From a virus (taxonomy: Duplodnaviria; Heunggongvirae; Uroviricota; Caudoviricetes), in the IMG/VR virus record IMGVR_UViG_2541047595_000015: DNA of 35,633 nt. One strand, written 5' to 3'. Below are positions 3,345-35,633 of the stretch, one piece after another. Each line of letters starts with the position of its first letter. Position 1 is the first letter of the stretch. Below the pieces are notes generated by a model. That model had not been told where the DNA came from. It searched no databases and saw only the letters and a list, made by a program, of their open reading frames with translations. The translations under genes and the position numbers were made by a program.

Positions 3345-3398
3345 GGGGGCAGTATTGCCCCCGTGCGGGAACGCTGATATTAAAGGCGTTTAAAAAGC

Positions 3399-5367: not shown

Positions 5368-6248
5368 ACACTCCTCGTCAGTATTCTGGCGGCCATTGCA
5401 CTTAATCCCGGAGACATGCGGTTGAATGCTGTTCCGACGGCGTTAAGCTGCCCGGAAACGGTATCCAGAGCACCTGCAATATTTCTTTTGTCCACACCAC
5501 TCAGCGCAGACTGTGCCTGCTGTACATACGTGGCTGCTTCGCTGGCTGTTCTGGCCAGACTGATGGCATCGGGCATGGATTCAGAGAGTGCGTTAAACGC
5601 CGGAACACTTTTCCCCAGAGCCCCGGAGATATTACCCAGTCCGCTCATCAGCCCCGGCACACGGGTCAGTGCGACAACGGGGTTATCCTTCATTTTCTGT
5701 GTCACTCGAACGGCGCTGATAGTGGTCTGGAGTACAGACTGCGCCTGTTTCGCATAGTTGACGCCGTTGCGGATGAACTGCGCCACCCCGGAAGGTGAAG
5801 GAATGGCACCGGAGACCGCCCCGACACCCGGGAGCTTCGTGCGTATTGCCGGTGGTTGCAGAGGATTTTTCGGGTCACCGGTGTATTCCCGGAGAGACAC
5901 GGTGGCACTGACAGCCAGCACGTTGCCGGTACTGTCAGTCTGCTCGCTGGTTGCAGTCACATCGGTAATCACGAACCAGCCGCGATAGTCACCGTTGCCG
6001 AAGACCAGCGCCAGTGCCTGATGGGCTTTCATGGCTGTTCGCAGTCTCGCCAGCTCCACATCGGGTACACAATAATGCTGATGGAAAACCAGAGTTATCT
6101 GGATTTCGTCCAGCCTGTCGCCGACGAACTGCAGGCCAGGCTTACCCCCGATGCGGGCATGCTCCGCATAATCGACGCCGAACGTGGCCTCGAAGCCGTC
6201 CCAGTAGGTAATCAGCTCAAACTCAATATCACCCAGTACGGCAAACAT
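5364..6248 (-). CDS. Tail protein, gpU-like / DNA-circularisation-like
   Basis: 294 aa; directly downstream of the tape measure gene as in P2 (T-U-D); the N-terminus resembles tail protein U. Assignment is positional plus weak similarity. Confidence 0.5.
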   Translation of the reverse strand: MFAVLGDIEFELITYWDGFEATFGVDYAEHARIGGKPGLQFVGDRLDEIQITLVFHQHYCVPDVELARLRTAMKAHQALALVFGNGDYRGWFVITDVTATSEQTDSTGNVLAVSATVSLREYTGDPKNPLQPPAIRTKLPGVGAVSGAIPSPSGVAQFIRNGVNYAKQAQSVLQTTISAVRVTQKMKDNPVVALTRVPGLMSGLGNISGALGKSVPAFNALSESMPDAISLARTASEAATYVQQAQSALSGVDKRNIAGALDTVSGQLNAVGTAFNRMSPGLSAMAARILTRSV

Positions 6249-21289: not shown

Positions 21290-21615
21290 TATTGACCTCC
21301 GGTATTGCGGTACTGCTGTACCACTTCCAGTTTGTTATAAAGCGCGTCCAGTTTGGCCTCAATGACTGTCTGGCCACGGATATAATCCTCTCGACGGACA
21401 TAATTCAGCGGTAAATCCGCTTTAAATCGCATAAATTCTTTTTCCAGCTCGCCCCAGTTGGAGGCGGATTGTTGCAGGGCCTGTTCAAGGGAGGCGAATC
21501 GTGCCGCCTGGCGTTCTTCTGTTTTACTGAACAACCATTTGGCGAGCCCTCCCACAAACCCCATGAAGGTGAGCAGAAAACTCACCACCGTCCAGAATTC
21601 AACCTGCAGTGTCAT
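21289..21615 (-). CDS. Membrane protein with N-terminal TM helix and coiled coil (DUF2730-like)
   Basis: 108 aa; hydrophobic N-terminus (VVSFLLTFMGFVGGLAKWLF) followed by a helical region; ATGA overlap with the spanin gene. Confidence 0.45.
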   Translation of the reverse strand: MTLQVEFWTVVSFLLTFMGFVGGLAKWLFSKTEERQAARFASLEQALQQSASNWGELEKEFMRFKADLPLNYVRREDYIRGQTVIEAKLDALYNKLEVVQQYRNTGGQ

Positions 21616-22262
21616 TTCTGTAATCCTTCCCGTTCATCCAGTAACGCGTTTATCTGGTTCCGCCAGCGACGACATTGTCCTGCGTTGTCGATGATGTTGG
21701 CGAGAACGTCACGCTGGGAGACACCCGAATCGCGTAACCGGGTGTCAGTGGTTTCAGGTTGCCCGGTCGCTGTGCCAGAGCGGGTGCCAGCGGCGGCAAC
21801 TGAGTCTGAATGACCGGTGTCGACGGATGCGTTGTCATATCCGAGTGCGGCGTTGTACTGGCGCACGAAACCGCGAGTAAACACGCACTCAATGGGATGG
21901 CTCTTACCTTTTTCATCAATCCAGCGCTGTGTGACATCGTTAATTTGCCCCTGTAGTTGTTTATTCCGGCTCTCCAGTTGAGCAATCTGCTCAAGATAAC
22001 CGGCTTCAGCCCGCTGCCCGGCGGCCACCTGCTCCTGATACCGTCTGGCCCAGGCCCGCAGCGCAGCATTCTCAAGCGTTGCCTGCTCCGTTTTGTACGC
22101 GTCAAATGCTGACTGCAACTGACTGAGCGCGGTATCACCGTCACGCTTTGCAGAGTCATGACCACTTCTGTATCCCATGGCATACAGGCCGACCAGAAAG
22201 GCATTGATAAGAATGGCCAGCAGAATGCCGCGCCACGGCAGCTTTTTAATCAGATGCCACAC
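21612..22262 (-). CDS. i-spanin (Rz-like)
   Basis: Start placed at the GTG at 22262, which has GGGAGG 8 nt upstream. N-terminal TM helix (WRGILLAILINAFLVGLYAMGY) followed by a periplasmic coiled coil. The longer track ORF (to 22364) would overlap the endolysin by about 120 nt. Confidence 0.6.
   Translation of the reverse strand: MWHLIKKLPWRGILLAILINAFLVGLYAMGYRSGHDSAKRDGDTALSQLQSAFDAYKTEQATLENAALRAWARRYQEQVAAGQRAEAGYLEQIAQLESRNKQLQGQINDVTQRWIDEKGKSHPIECVFTRGFVRQYNAALGYDNASVDTGHSDSVAAAGTRSGTATGQPETTDTRLRDSGVSQRDVLANIIDNAGQCRRWRNQINALLDEREGLQK
21650..21916 (-). CDS. o-spanin (Rz1-like lipoprotein) embedded in the i-spanin gene
   Basis: Internal ATG at 21916 in a different frame gives MKKVRAIPLSACLLAVSC-ASTTPHSD..., a signal peptide with lipobox-like LAVSC, followed by a proline-rich mature region (PSTPVIQTQLPPLAPALAQRPGNLKPLTPG). 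Confidence 0.6.
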   Translation of the reverse strand: MKKVRAIPLSACLLAVSCASTTPHSDMTTHPSTPVIQTQLPPLAPALAQRPGNLKPLTPGYAIRVSPSVTFSPTSSTTQDNVVAGGTR

Positions 22263-22986
22263 AACTGCTGCCTCCCCATGTGAGATATCGCGGTGCCAGT
22301 TCGCGCAGGATGCGCTGCGGATAATGGCGGTTCTCCCGCCAGCTGGCCGCATTGCGTCCGGCATTCACCGTGGCGACATGTCCGAACCAGCGGGTGCTGT
22401 CCAGACCTTTCTGTGATGCAAGCCGCCTGTCCCGTTGTACCCAGCCCAGACCACCGTTATAGCCCGACAGTGTCATGGCCATACGCTCGCAGTCACTGGC
22501 GGCGCTGACACGCTGCCACAGCCAGCGGTCATAGCTGACCAGCGCCCGGATAGCCCATGCCGGATTAAACGGCTCACGACTGCTCAGCATCGGTATCAAC
22601 TGGCTTATCCAGTCGGCAGTGGCAGGCATGAACTGCGCCAGTCCCTGAGCGCCAGCCGGCGAGATCGCATCAGGTCGCCAGCCGCTTTCCTGATGCAGTT
22701 GCGCGGCGAAATCGGCCACCGGCGCAGACAGTCCCCATTCAAGCCGGGCATTACGGATCACATCATCGCGATACTGCAGCGCAGCCTGCGGAGGTTGTGC
22801 TGCGCATGCCTGGCTGAAAAAGCCGCCACACCAGAGCAACATTGCGACAAAGAATACCCATGCCATATGAACCAGAAAGGTCCCGGCGCGGACTGACAGG
22901 CGTTCGGTTCTGATGAAGACCCGAAAGGCTTCGAAAGCCAGTTTCAGGGACATGCATACAATCCAGGTGATCTGCGGCCAGTTCAT
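22246..22986 (-). CDS. Endolysin: lytic transglycosylase with N-terminal signal-anchor (SAR-type candidate)
   Basis: SLT catalytic motif LHQESGWRPDAISPAGAQGLAQFMPATA; hydrophobic N-terminal segment (MAWVFFVAMLLWCGGFF). An alternative start at the ATG at 22866 is possible. Confidence 0.8.
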   Translation of the reverse strand: MNWPQITWIVCMSLKLAFEAFRVFIRTERLSVRAGTFLVHMAWVFFVAMLLWCGGFFSQACAAQPPQAALQYRDDVIRNARLEWGLSAPVADFAAQLHQESGWRPDAISPAGAQGLAQFMPATADWISQLIPMLSSREPFNPAWAIRALVSYDRWLWQRVSAASDCERMAMTLSGYNGGLGWVQRDRRLASQKGLDSTRWFGHVATVNAGRNAASWRENRHYPQRILRELAPRYLTWGGSSCVASD

Positions 22987-22988
22987 GA

Positions 22989-23339
22989 TTAAAGCCCCAT
23001 CGCAACAGCCAGGCAGACCGCTGCAACAATCAGTGCACGGCGGATTAACGCAGCAGAAAACACCAGGTGAAGGCCGGTCTGTACCGGGAAACGCCCTTCA
23101 GCCATCAGCCTGTCGTCATGTTTCAGGTACTGACCGGGACGGGCTTTGGGGAAGAGCGAACGGTCAAGCCAGTAACCCAGCACTGCTGCCAGCGTGATGA
23201 GTGCCAGCTTGTAGATCACAACAGGCAGCTGCTGTGGTGAGACCAGAGCGATGGTGCCCAGCAACAGCACTGAGGTCAGCAGCCAGCCGCTGAGGCGAGG
23301 TTTTTTAACAGGGGGAATGAATTTTTTCAGGTTTTTCAT
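22989..23339 (-). CDS. Putative holin
   Basis: First gene of the late operon. Start placed at the ATG at 23339 with GAGGAG 6 nt upstream. Two to three hydrophobic segments read by eye (LLTSVLLLGTIALV, IYKLALITLAAVLGYWL, LIVAAVCLAVAMGL). Immediately precedes the endolysin. Confidence 0.55.
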   Translation of the reverse strand: MKNLKKFIPPVKKPRLSGWLLTSVLLLGTIALVSPQQLPVVIYKLALITLAAVLGYWLDRSLFPKARPGQYLKHDDRLMAEGRFPVQTGLHLVFSAALIRRALIVAAVCLAVAMGL

Positions 23340-23342
23340 GTG

Positions 23343-23365
23343 TGTCTCCTCGTTTGGTGGAGACA
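23343..23365 (-). promoter_or_regulatory. Hairpin in the holin 5' leader that sequesters the Shine-Dalgarno sequence
   Basis: Minus-strand RNA reads UGUCUCC-ACCAAACGA-GGAGACA-CAC-AUG: 7-bp stem, 9-nt loop, with the SD (GGAGA) in the 3' arm. Confidence 0.4.
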
Positions 23366-23469
23366 GCATCACAAATACAGGGCGCAAAGGATTTTAAAGC
23401 GCGTTAAGAGAGCCGGGGATACGGGATGTGCAGGATAAACGATGAATTATTCACAGAGGAGAATACGAT

Positions 23470-23946
23470 ATGACGCACACACTGAATCCGGTCATCACTG
23501 TCACTGTGTCCGGTCCTGTGGGCAGCGGTAAAAGTTACGTACTGGCGCGGATAGAAGAGATGGTGAAACAGGAACTCGGAAACAGCGTCATTGTCGATGC
23601 TGCTGACGTGGAGAATGAGCGCCGTATGAATGGCGAAGATCTGACGACCTGGCAGAAGCCACGGGGTGGCACAGTGATCAGGCTAGAGGAATACACGGGA
23701 CAGGGCCTGTTGTCATACGGCGAGGAGCGTATCTGTCGGACGAATGAGCTGCTGGATGTTATATGCCCCACGGGCCGGCAACCCTGGATACTGCCCGATG
23801 CACTGCATGCCACCATTGCGGCACTGATGACAGTTTACGATCAGGAGCTGCTCATGAAGGAGTTACGTAAACTCACCGGTCAGCCAACAGAATGTTGTTC
23901 GTCTCCGAAGTACGGCAAACAGGAAAACGCCCCGGATAATCCTTAA
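23470..23946 (+). CDS. P-loop NTPase-like hypothetical protein
   Basis: 158 aa; N-terminal Walker A-like GPVGSGKS; GAGGAG RBS upstream of the ATG; transcribed divergently from the late operon; cysteine pair near the C-terminus (ECCSSP). Confidence 0.5.
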   Translation: MTHTLNPVITVTVSGPVGSGKSYVLARIEEMVKQELGNSVIVDAADVENERRMNGEDLTTWQKPRGGTVIRLEEYTGQGLLSYGEERICRTNELLDVICPTGRQPWILPDALHATIAALMTVYDQELLMKELRKLTGQPTECCSSPKYGKQENAPDNP

Positions 23947-23950
23947 GATA

Positions 23951-23981
23951 CCTCCTGAACAGAAACAGCCCTGAAGGGCTG
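23951..23981 (-). terminator. Rho-independent terminator candidate ending the repressor-linked operon
   Basis: Perfect hairpin CAGCCC-TGAA-GGGCTG at 23966-23981, directly after the stop at 23984. On the minus strand it is followed by UUUCUGUUC. Confidence 0.55.
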
Positions 23982-23983
23982 CA

Positions 23984-24574
23984 CTAAAAAAAGAAGTGTA
24001 TTATTGCCCAAACAGCTATAACGATGATTCCCAGCCCAAGAGCCGATTCTAACTTATCTTTGGCAGTCATTTTTACTGTTGTAGCGGGCGCAGGTAAGTC
24101 TTGCTGCTGTGGATTTTCTGTTAGTTGTTTACGAGAAGAAACATCGCCCCTATTAGTTTGCTTCATGTTGATTACAGATGCGTTATGGGCATTATCAGCA
24201 GCAATTGACTGAAGTTTTACAAAAGTTTTTGAATCTGTTTTAGCCAGAAGTAACCTATTTCCCGTAAACATTGCCTTAAAAGTGATAGTTTTTTTCGTCT
24301 TGTCCGCCGCACCAAGCAAACCTCCAATGACCAACCCTGCACCACCAAAGATTAATCCACCAAGCAAACCTGCGCCTGCCGCCTTACCTATACGGCTTTC
24401 CTCTTCACTATCCGCAAGTTCAATCGATAAAAGCTCTTCTTTCAGATTTAATACAATATTTTCAGGAAAGCCTTGTTTTGGTTTTTTGGCAAACACGATG
24501 GTACCGAACCCCATGCTTGCCCACCCTTTAGGAAAACTTCCTGCGATAACCTGAATCCCTGCCATGTTCATCAC
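23984..24574 (-). CDS. Membrane protein with glycine-zipper segment and C-terminal hydrophobic tail
   Basis: 196 aa; GAGLLGGLIFGGAGLVIGGLLGAA glycine zipper; C-terminal LGLGIIVIAVWAIIHFFF; AT-rich codon usage unlike the phage core. Confidence 0.5.
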   Translation of the reverse strand: MMNMAGIQVIAGSFPKGWASMGFGTIVFAKKPKQGFPENIVLNLKEELLSIELADSEEESRIGKAAGAGLLGGLIFGGAGLVIGGLLGAADKTKKTITFKAMFTGNRLLLAKTDSKTFVKLQSIAADNAHNASVINMKQTNRGDVSSRKQLTENPQQQDLPAPATTVKMTAKDKLESALGLGIIVIAVWAIIHFFF

Positions 24575-24655
24575 CTTTTACATTAAAATTTCAGAACGCA
24601 GCATGATGCCGCCTTTGTCTTTTTTCTGATCCCATGGTAATTCAGCTGTTATTTT

Positions 24656-25642
24656 CTATTTAAGAATAAAACGGTATTTACTGTCAGGAGTGCTTTGCTG
24701 ATCAAGTAGCAGTGAACGACATGGAGCAGTCAAAACCCGAGCATAACTACCATCAGGGCTTATGTTAATGTAACAAACCTTGCCCTTAACACTATAATTT
24801 TCGGGGACGGATGCCTTTGCTGATACAGTAAATTTAAGGGTATGCCAGCCCGTTTTTTGCTTGTAGCTTGAAACCGAATGGAAATCATCTGAGTACTTAT
24901 TTAACCCTGGAAACATGCTGCGCAGTGCGGGGATGGAATCTTCTATTATTTTATCGTTGGTTTTAATGTTAAAAACGCTGGTTTCAGTAGAAGCTACTGC
25001 TTTGGCATTTCCCCATTTACCAGCGAACACAATCATTCCCACGAAAAATATTGCTACAAGAACTAACACTCCCCCCAACACTACTACATGAGGCTTCCGG
25101 CTTCTGGTTGGTACAGTTGCGACTGATTTTGCACCGCTTTCCGATGGAGGTGATAGAGTTTTACTCTCATCACGAATATTCAGCAGATCATCAAAATAAC
25201 CAAACACAGCCTGCAACTGCTCTTTGTCTAGGCCTTTAAGATGGGTTGTACCGAAATGCTTCAGACAGTATCTGTCACGGTCAAGACGATACCCAGGGTC
25301 AGTAAGCGCCATTATTTTGCTGACCAGAAGATTACAGTCCTTCATATTCTGGATCTGTTGTGCATATCTCTGAAGGATCTCAACCGCACCATGATAATCA
25401 GCCGCAGTCATTTCATTAACTGTTTTGGTATTAAGTTTCGTGTGGATCGTCATCCATAGCTCGCGCTTACTTTCCCCCAGATCAACCAATTCATCCATCA
25501 ATCTGTGTAAATCGCGTTTTTGCAGCAACGAAATTGGTTGCTGGGCCGAAGGAAGTATGTCAGCAGAATAGTTATGAATGGTAACATCACCGCTGACAAC
25601 GTTACCCACATCCCCGTTAACTGTTTGCTTCTCTTTACTCAT
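24656..25642 (-). CDS. Single-pass membrane protein (cytoplasmic N-domain, TM, C-terminal ~110-aa domain)
   Basis: 328 aa; one hydrophobic helix (HVVVLGGVLVLVAIFFVGMIVFAG) in the middle; ATGA overlap with the upstream HTH gene; AT-rich. Confidence 0.5.
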   Translation of the reverse strand: MSKEKQTVNGDVGNVVSGDVTIHNYSADILPSAQQPISLLQKRDLHRLMDELVDLGESKRELWMTIHTKLNTKTVNEMTAADYHGAVEILQRYAQQIQNMKDCNLLVSKIMALTDPGYRLDRDRYCLKHFGTTHLKGLDKEQLQAVFGYFDDLLNIRDESKTLSPPSESGAKSVATVPTRSRKPHVVVLGGVLVLVAIFFVGMIVFAGKWGNAKAVASTETSVFNIKTNDKIIEDSIPALRSMFPGLNKYSDDFHSVSSYKQKTGWHTLKFTVSAKASVPENYSVKGKVCYINISPDGSYARVLTAPCRSLLLDQQSTPDSKYRFILK

Positions 25643-26100
25643 CTTCTCTTGGTATTTTTGTTCATTATTCCACCTGTTCCTATGGTTACGTTACCTTTGA
25701 TAACATTCCCCAGAACATCTCCATGAATAACCTGTTCCGCCCGTTCTCTGGAGGAGCCAGTAGTCAAGGCCGACAAAACTGAACCTTTGACCTGTAATGG
25801 TGCCTGCCGGTAGTGCTGCAGTAACTCCATTTCATCACGTGATAAAGTTATACCTGATGACTCCCCGGTAAGAATGAACTGTACATTGGCCCCAATTCTT
25901 GCAAAGGCTGCAAGTAACTCACCTCCGGGAACAGCAACCCCTCGTTCATATTTCCCCCACATTTCTCTTGAAACGCCACAAAGGGCTGCTACTTCAGCCT
26001 GCTTGAGTGATAACCGCGAACGCTCAGCTTTGAACCGCGACGCGCAAAGAGAATCAAAATTCACATAAACCTCATTGACAATGAGAACAATAGTTCTCAT
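25639..26100 (-). CDS. XRE-family HTH transcriptional regulator (candidate prophage repressor)
   Basis: 153 aa; HTH_XRE-type motif LSLKQAEVAALCGVSREMWGKYERG; divergent from the Ner-like early gene as in the Mu c/ner switch; start codon lies inside an inverted repeat. Confidence 0.7.
   Translation of the reverse strand: MRTIVLIVNEVYVNFDSLCASRFKAERSRLSLKQAEVAALCGVSREMWGKYERGVAVPGGELLAAFARIGANVQFILTGESSGITLSRDEMELLQHYRQAPLQVKGSVLSALTTGSSRERAEQVIHGDVLGNVIKGNVTIGTGGIMNKNTKRR
26081..26100. promoter_or_regulatory. Inverted repeat (operator candidate) overlapping the repressor start codon
   Basis: ATGAGAAC-aata-GTTCTCAT: 8-bp arms with a 4-bp spacer; minus-strand ATG at 26100-26098 lies within one arm. 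Confidence 0.45.
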
Positions 26101-29408: not shown

Positions 29409-30575
29409 ATGCTGGTACTGAAGCAGCAACTGAAAGAGGCCCGTATTCCACAGGCGGTGGTGGCGAGAGCTGTCGATGTTTCTGAGGCCACGCTGGCCCA
29501 GATTGTGAATCATAACGCGTGGCCCCGCACCAGCCCCGGAGAAGTGCGCCGGCGTCTTGCGTCCTGGCTGGAAAGTCAGGGGATTGATACAACGAAGAGT
29601 TTTGATGCTGTACAGGGCGCGGCCACGCCCCGTACAGCGGGTACCACAGATAAAACGAGCCTCAGTGAGGAAGAGAATATGTTACTCAAAAAACAGGTGT
29701 TATTTCCAGCAACCAAAAAAGCGTTTGGTCTTTTCCGTGACCCGTTCGCCGACGAAGCCATGCAGGGTTCTGATGATGTGTTCACCACTCCGGACATTCG
29801 CTACGTGCGTGAGGCGCTGTACCAGACAGCCCGTCATGGTGGGTTTATGGCCGTCATCGGTGAGTCCGGTGCGGGTAAATCCACGCTGCGCCGTGACCTG
29901 ACTGAACGTATCAACCGCGAGAATGCGCCGGTGATTGTTATCGAGCCATACATCATCGCTATGGAAGACAACGATGTGAAAGGGAAAACCCTGAAGGCAG
30001 CAGCGATTGCCGAAGCCATTATCAGTACCATCGCACCACTGGAAAGCATCAGACGCAGTCAGGACGCCCGCTTTCGCCAGCTGCATCGCGTCCTGAAAGA
30101 CAGCAGCCAGGCGGGGTTCAGCCACGTTCTGGTGATTGAGGAGGCCCACAGTCTGCCCATTCCGACACTGAAACACCTCAAACGCTTTTTTGAGCTGGAG
30201 TCCGGTTTCAAAAAACTGCTGTCCATCGTGCTGATTGGCCAGCCGGAACTGGCGACAAAACTGTCTGAACGCAATATGGAAGTCCGTGAAGTCGTTCAGC
30301 GCTGTGAGGTGGTCGAACTTCTGCCTCTGGACAATAACCTTGAAGAGTTTCTGACGTTCAAACTGCAACGGGCCGGTAAACAACTGACGGACATTATGGA
30401 CGCCAGCGCAGTGGATGCCATACGTGCCCGCCTGAGCAATCCGGGAAGTCATCGTAAAAATATGGTCAGCCTGCTGTATCCGCTGGCCGTCAGTAACCTG
30501 GTAATAGCCGCCATGAATCTGGCCGCTGAAATCGGGGTTCCACAGGTCAACGCTGACGTTGTCAAAGGGGTTTAA
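29409..30575 (+). CDS. Transposition ATPase (MuB/TniB-like AAA+)
   Basis: Start at the ATG at 29409 with GAGGAGGG RBS; Walker A GESGAGKST; N-terminal HTH-like segment; follows the transposase. Confidence 0.8.
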   Translation: MLVLKQQLKEARIPQAVVARAVDVSEATLAQIVNHNAWPRTSPGEVRRRLASWLESQGIDTTKSFDAVQGAATPRTAGTTDKTSLSEEENMLLKKQVLFPATKKAFGLFRDPFADEAMQGSDDVFTTPDIRYVREALYQTARHGGFMAVIGESGAGKSTLRRDLTERINRENAPVIVIEPYIIAMEDNDVKGKTLKAAAIAEAIISTIAPLESIRRSQDARFRQLHRVLKDSSQAGFSHVLVIEEAHSLPIPTLKHLKRFFELESGFKKLLSIVLIGQPELATKLSERNMEVREVVQRCEVVELLPLDNNLEEFLTFKLQRAGKQLTDIMDASAVDAIRARLSNPGSHRKNMVSLLYPLAVSNLVIAAMNLAAEIGVPQVNADVVKGV

Positions 30576-33614: not shown

Positions 33615-34056
33615 ACAACGTCTTATCCAGCTCATTCATATTGCCCGTAATGAACTGGGTATGGATGAAGACACCTACCGCCAGATGTTACAGGGGCTGA
33701 CCGGTAAAGCCTCAACCAAAGGAATGGATACCACACAACTAAACTGCGTGCTGGAATCCATGAAAAGGAAAGGCTTTCGCGTTAAGCCTGCCGGAAAAGC
33801 CAGCTCCGGTTTACCGCTGGATAACCATCCGCAGTCCAGGAAAATCCGTGCGCTATGGCTTGAAATGGCTGCTGCCGGCATTGTTCGTGACCGTTCAGAA
33901 AATGCATTAGCGCGGTGGATCAAGCGGGAAACGGGCATCAGCGCCCTGCGCTGGCTCAATACTGAACAGGCAAGCAGTGTTATTGAGAAACTGAAGAAGT
34001 GGCAGCACAGAGCTGCGGGAGTAAAACATGAGCGACCTGAATCAGTTTCGAAGTAA
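33604..34056 (+). CDS. GemA-like protein (Mu gp16 family)
   Basis: Start at the ATG at 33604 (AAGGAG RBS); MMTKQRLIQLIHIARNELGMDEDTYRQML... resembles the Mu GemA/gp16 N-terminal signature; sits immediately upstream of the mor-like gene as in Mu. Confidence 0.6.
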   Translation: MMTKQRLIQLIHIARNELGMDEDTYRQMLQGLTGKASTKGMDTTQLNCVLESMKRKGFRVKPAGKASSGLPLDNHPQSRKIRALWLEMAAAGIVRDRSENALARWIKRETGISALRWLNTEQASSVIEKLKKWQHRAAGVKHERPESVSK

Positions 34057-34417
34057 AGGGCCGGAACTCCTGGTGGAACTGGCACAGCATACCTCTGAGA
34101 CCGTTCGCGAGATTATTGATATTGAGCCCGCAATTGCCGACCAGATTGGTCAGGCCGTCGCGAACCGCATGATGCAGGTCTGGGGCGGGCAAAACGTTTA
34201 TTTCCCGATGGGCATGGTATGGAAGGTCAGTCAGCGCGACCGGGAAATCTTCAGGGAGTTTAACGGACGTAACCACCATGAACTGGCCCGCAAATTTGGT
34301 GTTTCGCTTCAGTGGGTCTACAGCGTGGTTAAGCGGGTAAGAAAAGAAGAACTGGATCGGATGCAGGGCAAGCTATTTGCTGATGAACCCGATGTAGATA
34401 CGGAGAAAAAAGAGTAA
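34028..34417 (+). CDS. Mor-like transcriptional activator (Mor/C family)
   Basis: 129 aa; GGQNVYFP ... REIFREFNGRNHHELARKFGVSLQWVYSVVKRVR matches the Mor/C family C-terminal HTH region; last phage gene before the element end. Confidence 0.75.
   Translation: MSDLNQFRSKGPELLVELAQHTSETVREIIDIEPAIADQIGQAVANRMMQVWGGQNVYFPMGMVWKVSQRDREIFREFNGRNHHELARKFGVSLQWVYSVVKRVRKEELDRMQGKLFADEPDVDTEKKE

Positions 34418-34439: not shown

Positions 34440-35633
<1,194 letters not shown>

Follow-up and report, generated by a model that had tools for sequence, protein, structure and literature searches.

A small P-loop gene divergent from the holin gene of BcepMu-like Escherichia coli prophages belongs to a phage-restricted family conserved in a Walker A module

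The window analyzed here, a stretch of 35,633 nucleotides, is a BcepMu-like (Bcepmuvirus-type) transposable Escherichia coli prophage. Between its late and lysogeny operons lies a short gene whose product carries a Walker A motif. An initial annotation, made from the sequence, had described this product as a stand-alone P-loop protein, too small for a typical AAA+ ATPase, that could be a small kinase-like or nucleotide-binding effector encoded by a moron. We asked what kind of P-loop protein this is, when in the phage cycle it would be made, and what it may do. The genes and signals that define the locus are listed below.

21612-22364, minus strand: Rz-like spanin gene
22246-22986, minus strand: SLT endolysin gene
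22989-23339, minus strand: holin gene (PF13272), first gene of the leftward lysis/late operon
23470-23946, plus strand: the P-loop gene, 158 codons plus stop, a short allele of the PHROG 3787 family
23965-23982, minus strand: intrinsic terminator of the repressor operon, where the low-GC downstream cassette starts
25639-26100, minus strand: HTH repressor gene, in an operon that also encodes 328-aa and 196-aa proteins
34028-34417, plus strand: Mor/C-family activator gene, with no second such gene in the window; it follows gemA and closes the early operon

Beyond the lysis cassette, the minus strand carries the terminase, portal, head, and tail genes. The repressor operon (23984-26100, minus strand) converges on the P-loop gene, and the rightward early operon encodes Ner-like, IclR-type HTH, DUF3102, transposase, MuB-like AAA, Gam, GemA, and Mor proteins. 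The P-loop gene is transcribed opposite to both the late operon, which begins with the holin gene, and the repressor operon, as the initial annotation had it, and its accessory position in the mosaic region between the late and lysogeny operons was also borne out. In every locus examined, the holin gene is the divergent neighbor of the P-loop gene. All E. coli alleles occupy the same slot, with the gene start 130 bp from the holin start codon, and the slot is shared by three multi-module relatives (L042, L044, and L045) whose holin is only about 65% identical. Downstream, the genes are highly variable between loci. Most relatives carry a co-oriented Dam methylase gene there, a cassette that is absent from the window. 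The GC content of the P-loop gene is 0.50-0.55, like that of the late genes, and that of the adjacent cassette is 0.41-0.46; this low-GC stretch is the truly foreign DNA, and it starts at the P-loop stop codon. No plus-strand terminator was found after the P-loop gene.

The P-loop gene was divided into the following elements.

23457-23462, plus strand: RBS GAGGAG, 7 nt 5' of the ATG
23470-23700, plus strand: N-terminal minimal P-loop module (N-module), residues 1-77
23512-23535, plus strand: Walker A motif GPVGSGKS, residues 15-22 (G15-S22)
23716-23877, plus strand: helical 'module 2', residues 83-136, three predicted helices, with the core PWILPDALHATIAALMTVYDQELLMKELRKL
23878-23946, plus strand: predicted-disordered tail, in which similarity to the 242/247-aa alleles stops at about 23934

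The P-loop ORF is a real gene under purifying selection (dN/dS 0.09-0.29). Pairwise dN/dS among four allele classes was 0.22-0.28 overall and 0.09-0.26 over the N-terminal 77 codons; between the 158-aa allele of the window and a second 158-aa allele it was 0.29 at a dS of 0.34, and the ORF was intact. Relatives of the protein were found at the protein level in distant phages that have no DNA similarity to the window. The RBS is real as well, and its AGGA core and the ATG are invariant in an intergenic alignment of seven diverged loci. An antisense ORF at 23535-23816 was judged spurious: its product is Ser-rich and of low complexity, and the sense frame is homologous at the protein level in distant phages. 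A stop-free antisense frame of about 100 codons is kept in all alleles, and its dN/dS is close to that of the sense frame; this control is uninformative because the wobble positions of both frames coincide. Positions 23300-24100 are 100% identical to E. coli IAI39 and CE10, in which the protein is RefSeq WP_000149906.1, named 'ABC transporter ATPase'. A literature search for WP_000149906, WP_000194951, or the accessory genes of the window's prophage returned nothing. The sequence predicts a soluble, mildly acidic protein, and no TM segment or signal peptide is visible in it. DNA mimicry by the N-module was considered and dropped, the module being only mildly acidic (median pI 5.2). BLAST of the flanking ORFs in eight contexts found neither a conserved partner gene nor a split NTPase, in keeping with a stand-alone small protein.

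Residues 1-77 are the only part conserved across the wider family. Alignment of 32 diverse homologous N-modules (29-53% identity) gave the pattern [IV]x[VI]SGPxGxGKSx[VI]LxxIExAL…G…L..ER…D…W..P…T…L.E. G20 and K21 are invariant in the 32 sequences; G15, S22, I28, and G37 each occur in at least 90%, and E50, W61, and E74 in more than 80%. The Walker A-like GPVGSGKS near the N-terminus was thus correctly recognized, and the motif has the form GxxxxGK[ST] between a beta-strand and a helix, which AF2 places at residues 8-13 and 21-39, respectively. Some family members have GKN where GKS is expected. The predicted order is beta1 (8-13), Walker A (15-22), helix (21-39), beta2 (41-43), a long loop, and beta3 (69-74). 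The loop holds the conserved E50, R51, D57, W61, and P64, and beta3 ends in the conserved E74. A canonical Walker B motif was not found in the 32 homologues; the check was negative because D43 of 'VIVD', present only in the enterobacterial alleles, is not conserved, and the conserved acids E50 and E74 lie outside any hhhhD/E context. The core of the protein is predicted by AF2, with moderate confidence, to have only three strands (mean pLDDT 61; about 70-75 in the N-module; below 50 in the loop at 44-68). With models of this moderate quality, the '3-strand' fold and the oligomer discussed below are both predictions. No significant structural match was obtained.

The window protein matched PHROG 3787 with an E-value of 2.1e-107 (359 bits) over profile positions 1-157 of 242. 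The profile corresponds to the long E. coli allele, and the window protein is without its last approximately 85 positions. All distant relatives tested also matched PHROG 3787, through the N-module. An exhaustive profile search of 1.84 billion representative proteins retrieved 66 relatives, most of which share only residues 1-75. Their lengths run from 70 to 364 aa, and many of them, at 70-90 aa, stand alone. Neither Pfam nor NCBIfam has a model for the PHROG 3787 family. The N-module defines a rare, phage-restricted, and uncharacterised family. Judged by its sequence, it looks like a P-loop core fragment with conserved residues of its own added, unlike any known complete NTPase. A natural, selected family conserved only in a Walker A module of about 75 residues is unusual.

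To place the protein among the known P-loop classes, it was compared with family models. Pfam, NCBIfam, and PADLOC gave no model at threshold, and all matches were generic P-loop matches within residues 4-60. The ABC transporter ATPase class was rejected: Pfam ABC_tran scored 13.6 bits against a cut-off of 25 and covered residues 4-49 only, the NCBIfam ABC equivalogs scored 14-15 bits against cut-offs of 266-875, and the 158 residues contain no LSGGQ-like sequence. The RefSeq/PGAP name is wrong for this protein on the evidence of its sequence. AAA+, KAP, and STAND classes were likewise rejected (AAA_30, AAA_22, KAP_NTPase, AAA_16, and nSTAND5, 12-18 bits against cut-offs of 20-34, residues 4-60); the protein is too small for AAA+, as first noted. 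The guanylate and uridine kinase models of NCBIfam reached 12-13 bits against cut-offs of 180-263, and the thymidylate kinase PHROG gave an E-value of 0.079. With no kinase, AAA+, ABC, or KAP model at threshold and only about 75 residues conserved, the suggested kinase-like nature was not supported. No PADLOC-DB defence model was significant; the best match (SngB, E-value 0.007) was confined to the P-loop.

By profile, the nearest solved proteins were the nucleotide-binding domains (NBDs) of ABC transporters (E-value about 5e-5), followed by cytidylate kinase and designed 'phosphate-loop' proteins, and these matches span only beta1, the P-loop, and alpha1, and sometimes beta2. The Walker A strand, loop, and helix are alike in the P-loop protein and ABC NBDs such as MalK and ABCB1. 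An hhalign comparison with MalK gave a probability of 95% over residues 11-58 and stopped at MalK 72, short of the Q-loop; this match is a lead only. In the segment after Walker A, MalK contains ITSGDLFIGEKRM, which the family consensus 'G-x-v-x-i-x-S-x-D-L-x-x-E-R' resembles. The equation of E74 with the Gln of the ABC Q-loop is unsupported, the alignment ending at residue 58. Unlike ABC NBDs, the P-loop protein has no A-loop hairpin, Q-loop alignment, LSGGQ, Walker B, D-loop, or H-loop; its conserved unit is 75 residues, compared with about 200-250 in ABC NBDs, and no transporter partner genes are present beside its gene. Small P-loop kinases and SIMIBI NTPases (thymidylate kinase, gluconate kinase, dethiobiotin synthetase, and ArsA/ParA) are also among the closest known systems. 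The designed minimal 'phosphate-loop' or beta-(P-loop)-alpha prototypes (PDB 6c2u, 9jix, and 5gaj; Tawfik laboratory) are laboratory constructs that, as oligomers, bind NTPs, polyphosphate, and ssDNA, and they provide a precedent for ligand binding. The phage family differs from them in being natural and selected and in having the extra conserved E50, R51, W61, and E74.

In contrast to the N-module, the C-terminal part of the protein varies. Allele lengths are 141, 158, 182, and 242/247 aa. Among complete E. coli genomes, about 483 carry the long form (242/247 aa), as does PhiKM, and about 100 carry the short 158-aa form of the window. DNA identity between the window and the long alleles is about 97% up to about 23934 and then ends; the 141-aa form has a different end, and the 182-aa form has an internal deletion. 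The core of module 2 (approximately residues 100-136) is the natural C-terminus of P0034, P0036, P0067, P0069, and the 141-aa allele. Module 3, absent from the window allele and present in the long alleles, recurs in P0038, P0042, and P0047, and other C-terminal modules of the family match separate PHROGs without assigned function. The second 158-aa allele (L053, 83% identical) has the same last codons and stop (…CCGGATAATCCTTAA), ending in '...PDNP-stop'; the two sequences part right after the TAA, and their downstream genes differ. Because GC falls from 0.50-0.55 to 0.41-0.46 at the stop codon and L053 shares this stop in front of different genes, the 3' end of the P-loop gene is a recombination boundary for swaps of the downstream cassette. 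Moreover, dS between the window and PhiKM is 0.24 in the N-module and 0.02 in codons 78-136, which indicates recombination inside the gene as well. The short 158-aa form is an established allele, not debris.

The slot itself is modular. Phage KP12 has no P-loop gene, yet the intergenic palindrome and hexamer (CAGAAT) described below, the RBS, and the ATG are kept. An unannotated 107-aa ORF takes the place of the gene, with 40-41% identity over 64 aa to the C-terminal module of P0041 and P0060 (E-values 2e-9 to 2e-11). This replacement indicates that the promoter-proximal slot carries a variable protein built from a pool of small modules, of which the P-loop module is the commonest member. As KP12 does without the P-loop module and some members have GKN, the essential activity may be something other than phosphate binding. 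The possibility that the gene is merely a common conserved hypothetical of Mu-like phage cores was borne out in part: the slot is kept in the enterobacterial BcepMu-like group, but the C-terminus is variable and KP12 carries a protein without a P-loop instead.

Stand-alone members occupy several contexts. In a Yersinia prophage (L005), one is found between the spanin genes, which it directly follows, and HNH and terminase genes; in Acinetobacter prophages, one lies just upstream of the small terminase gene; and in a marine prophage, one adjoins the integrase gene. One (L046) precedes holin and endolysin genes. GC-rich viral contigs carry stand-alone members in lysis, replication, or integrase neighborhoods. 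Stand-alone members also come from 73-79-kb phage contigs, and in one of these contigs Acb2/Tad1-hairpin and Sequestin-type genes lie no more than 5 kb away. P0087, known from one 2.9-kb contig only, is a homologue fused to a peptidoglycan-binding domain. With some stand-alone homologues in early, replication, or integrase contexts, late expression is not family-wide.

The region between the holin and P-loop genes was then considered for promoter signals. In the intergenic alignment, conserved islands stand amid diverged sequence: the holin RBS, the block GGAGACAGCAT, a palindrome, CAG(G/A)AT, and the P-loop RBS and ATG. The elements relevant to transcription are as follows.

23365-23373, minus strand: mirror-image extended -10 TGTGATGCT of the holin/late operon, 23 nt from the palindrome, predicted start at about 23358
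23393-23407, no strand assigned: palindrome TTTAAAGCGCGTTAA, core 23394-23407, centre 23400.5, candidate Mor/C-type activator site for two divergent promoters
23431-23436, plus strand: -10-like hexamer CAGGAT (CAGAAT in some relatives), predicted start at about 23443
3380-3394, no strand assigned: second palindrome copy TTTAAACGCCTTTAA, in the gap between two baseplate genes, with AATACT 23 nt later

Across loci, the palindrome has the form TTTAAAG(C/G)GC(G/T)TTAA. The hexamer lies exactly 23 nt from it in eight of eight loci despite diverged spacer sequence, and in the window the 14-bp palindrome core is 23 nt from a -10-like element on each side. If CAGGAT or GATGCT is taken as the -10, the centre of the palindrome is at about -42.5 in either direction. 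As a -10, CAGGAT is weak. The P-loop gene has no sigma-70 consensus promoter. The Mu activators Mor and C act at promoters that have a -10 and no -35 element, with a 16-bp dyad centred at -43.5 (PMC4390567, PMC2582627). The putative promoter arrangement in the window is like these Mu middle (Mor) and late (C) promoters in its -10-like hexamer, the missing -35, the dyad near -43, and the Mor-family activator that the phage encodes after gemA. The rightward transcript in most relatives also heads toward a DNA adenine methylase gene, as the com-mom late transcript of Mu does. Unlike in Mu, one dyad appears to serve two divergent promoters, and a single Mor/C homologue is encoded in the window. 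Mu has nothing equivalent to the P-loop protein.

The palindrome family occurs at three loci in the window, compared with 0.09 expected by chance. The copy at 3380-3394 is a possible second late promoter; its AATACT hexamer sits in a hairpin loop. The model does not include the third, palindrome-like site (30562-30575), around which no promoter geometry is seen. The control region of repressor and ner contains no copy of this palindrome. We propose the window's Mor-family activator (34028-34417) as the regulator that would bind the palindrome, although another regulator, such as the IclR-like HTH protein, could bind it instead. From this layout, we infer a bidirectional promoter pair dependent on a Mor-type activator, with the P-loop gene co-expressed with the lysis/late operon in the lytic cycle. 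A Mor/C-type layout common to the lysis promoter would imply expression in the lytic cycle and not in the lysogen, which argues against the earlier classification of the gene as a moron, as do the slot conserved in prophages with an approximately 65% identical holin, the late-like GC, and the lack of a sigma-70 consensus promoter. The palindrome with its mirror-image promoters offers a testable model for late transcription in BcepMu-like phages, driven by one Mor-type activator. On this model, the P-loop gene and, in most relatives, the downstream Dam gene would belong to the lytic programme and not to lysogenic conversion.

On the sum of these comparisons, the most likely role is that of a phosphate- or nucleotide-binding accessory protein. 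The N-module would bind a phosphate-bearing ligand, which may be a nucleotide or possibly a nucleic acid or polyphosphate, and it would act probably as an oligomer, without canonical ABC/AAA-type hydrolysis. Choice of a partner or target would fall to the variable C-terminal modules. Transcription would occur during lytic growth from a promoter dependent on the single Mor-family activator of the phage, through one dyad operator common to the P-loop promoter and the divergent holin/late promoter. We hold this combined reading tentatively, at slightly less than an even chance.

Other explanations were weighed against this accessory, ligand-binding role. A true minimal enzyme, an NTPase or phosphotransferase whose active site would be made complete either inside the 75-residue module or between the subunits of an oligomer, is unlikely. 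E50 or E74 would then be the Walker-B-like acid, R51 an arginine finger, and W61 a residue stacking on the base. Consistent with catalysis, the protein has an intact, invariant Walker A as well as conserved acidic, Arg, and Trp residues beyond that motif, and constraint within the gene is strongest in the N-module; in addition, designed P-loop polypeptides are reported to mediate phosphoryl transfer (PMC10119929). It is opposed by the missing hhhhD/E Walker B, the three-strand predicted core, GKN in some members, the lack of any enzyme family model at threshold, and the lack of an apparent substrate-binding domain. Somewhat less probable is a counter-defence effector that would either soak up a nucleotide immune signal or, by Walker A mimicry, poison an oligomeric P-loop defence ATPase; made late with Dam, it would ready the progeny for infection of the next host, and this role and the preferred reading are compatible. 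The pairing of a conserved N-module with hyper-shuffled C-terminal modules is what arms-race genes typically show, Dam has the same orientation as the gene in most variants, and the family is restricted to phages. The stand-alone homologue near Acb2/Tad1-hairpin and Sequestin-type genes also fits, but this neighborhood is a single locus, and PADLOC and known anti-defence families match only as generic P-loop noise. Anti-defence genes are mostly expressed early, whereas this promoter looks middle or late, and no sponge is known to be a P-loop protein.

The chance that the gene is a moron expressed in the lysogen, for toxin/immunity, exclusion, or host fitness, is slim. It lies in a mosaic inter-operon region, is transcribed independently of both operons, and has highly variable genes downstream; nevertheless, its slot and promoter layout are conserved across prophages with holins only about 65% identical, its GC is like that of phage late genes, and it lacks a sigma-70 promoter, a plus-strand terminator of its own, and a partner gene. 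A lysis-timing regulator or other lysis-linked helper has a slimmer chance still. Divergence from the holin gene at a common putative operator in all enterobacterial loci would agree with such a role, as would the homologues directly after the spanin genes (L005) and before the holin and endolysin genes (L046) and the peptidoglycan-binding fusion P0087. However, the protein appears soluble, the fusion comes from a single contig, and the flanks of lysis cassettes are generic hot spots for accessory genes, with other homologues found in replication or integrase contexts. We consider it hardly credible that cassette insertion truncated an ABC-type ATPase gene and left a remnant without function, a reading for which the PGAP name and the absence of about 90 C-terminal residues of the commonest allele would speak. 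The two 158-aa alleles have kept an intact ORF (dN/dS 0.29 at dS 0.34) and the same stop codon in front of two different downstream cassettes, the combination of N-module and module 2 is a natural architecture in other members, and no full-length ABC relative exists among the 1.84 billion representative proteins.

A bolder form of the preferred ligand-binding role would make the 70-80-residue N-module the smallest natural autonomous Walker A domain, one that binds nucleotides or nucleotide-derived immune signals as an oligomer and serves as a late-made counter-defence or regulatory factor. We regard this as rather improbable. If true, the 'ancestral' beta-(P-loop)-alpha prototypes, known so far from protein design only, would have a living counterpart in this mini P-loop of three strands and one helix. 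The family would also give a tractable experimental system for how little structure a working P-loop needs.

The gene is present in about 583 of 5,426 complete E. coli genomes (approximately 11%, or about one in nine), many clinical ST131-type strains among them. All copies are chromosomal, lie in BcepMu-like prophages, and diverge from the holin gene. In E. coli genomes it bears the misleading annotations 'ABC transporter ATPase' and 'KAP family NTPase'; renaming it 'phage minimal P-loop protein, function unknown' would keep it from being miscalled as a transporter or defence gene. Among 50,697 isolated phage genomes, the E. coli form was found in PhiKM only.

Around the start of the holin gene, the inverted repeat GTCTCC…GGAGAC (23344-23364) is conserved and flanks the holin RBS on both sides. 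The predicted activator-dependent start (~23358) falls within this repeat. In transcripts begun further upstream, the repeat could base-pair with the RBS and mask it; it might act as a safeguard against translation of the holin from read-through transcripts. A possible second start codon lies next to the repeat:

23367-23369, minus strand: upstream ATG, in frame with the holin, which would extend the protein by 10 residues (MLSPPNEETH)

A holin with this ATG would resemble the dual-start layout of lambda S, and the block holding the codon is unchanged in seven loci. Since the proposed -10 element overlaps this block, the promoter rather than a second start may account for the conservation.

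A second copy of the palindrome that precedes the P-loop gene, and a third site resembling it, were located in the window:

3380-3394: second palindrome core, a perfect copy (TTAAACGCCTTTAA), where 54 bp separate two baseplate genes
30562-30575: third palindrome-like site (TCAAAGGGGTTTAA), with one mismatch, overlapping the MuB-like gene's stop codon

The hexamer AATACT, 23 nt beyond the second copy, is the loop sequence in a GC hairpin (GGGGGC-AATACT-GCCCCC) immediately 5' of an ATG; an internal late promoter and an RNA structure are both possible readings of the site. No -10-like hexamer was found at the 23-nt spacing from the third site.

Within the P-loop gene, the complementary strand carries a long stop-free frame:

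23535-23816, minus strand: antisense ORF, 93 aa, Ser-rich

This frame stays open in all alleles, with a dN/dS close to the sense-frame value. Rather than an overlapping gene, it is probably a side effect of the alignment of wobble positions.

The slot of the P-loop gene and its downstream side vary among related phages:

L003 (Klebsiella phage KP12, OM835952) ~5506-5829, plus strand: unannotated ORF, 107 aa, at the usual slot of the P-loop gene
L002 5705-6109, minus strand: convergent gene, 134 aa, of the ST131-type prophage and PhiKM

The KP12 ORF is preceded by the same palindrome, hexamer, and RBS as the P-loop gene elsewhere, and its product shares homology with the C-terminal module of two members of the P-loop family, P0041 and P0060. 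Where the long allele is present, the 134-aa gene runs into the P-loop gene from the opposite side, with an overlap of 25 nt at the latter's 3' end; this convergent gene is missing in the window, where an operon converges on the P-loop gene:

23984-26100, minus strand: three-gene operon, GC 0.41-0.46
within 23984-26100, minus strand: HTH repressor, 153 aa
23982-23965, minus strand: terminator closing the operon

Besides the repressor, the operon encodes a 328-aa protein with a Flk-like N-terminus (NCBIfam, E 2.9e-12) and a hydrophobic, TM-segment-like stretch at residues ~185-207, and a Gly-rich 196-aa protein with a hydrophobic C-terminus. As a candidate membrane module expressed in lysogens, the operon might serve exclusion or lysogenic conversion. 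Its position holds other genes in other prophage variants.

One ORF helps to place the right end of the prophage:

34572-35633, minus strand: ORF with PrpR_N and sigma-54-activator domains

Because of these domains, the ORF looks like host prpR; therefore, the right end is placed between ~34420 and 34570.

Relatives of the mini P-loop module were also found elsewhere. In the metagenomic protein P0087 (L052 1919-2398), a peptidoglycan-binding domain (PF01471, E 5e-15) is fused to the module, an odd pairing with an ATP-binding domain that is represented by one protein on a 2.9-kb contig. A DUF7484 gene lies less than 3 kb from a stand-alone mini P-loop gene in both L004 (3785-4585) and L012 (2806-3627). 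These phage contigs are 73-79 kb long and look unrelated to each other. In L012, Acb2/Tad1-hairpin and Sequestin-type genes are also close by.
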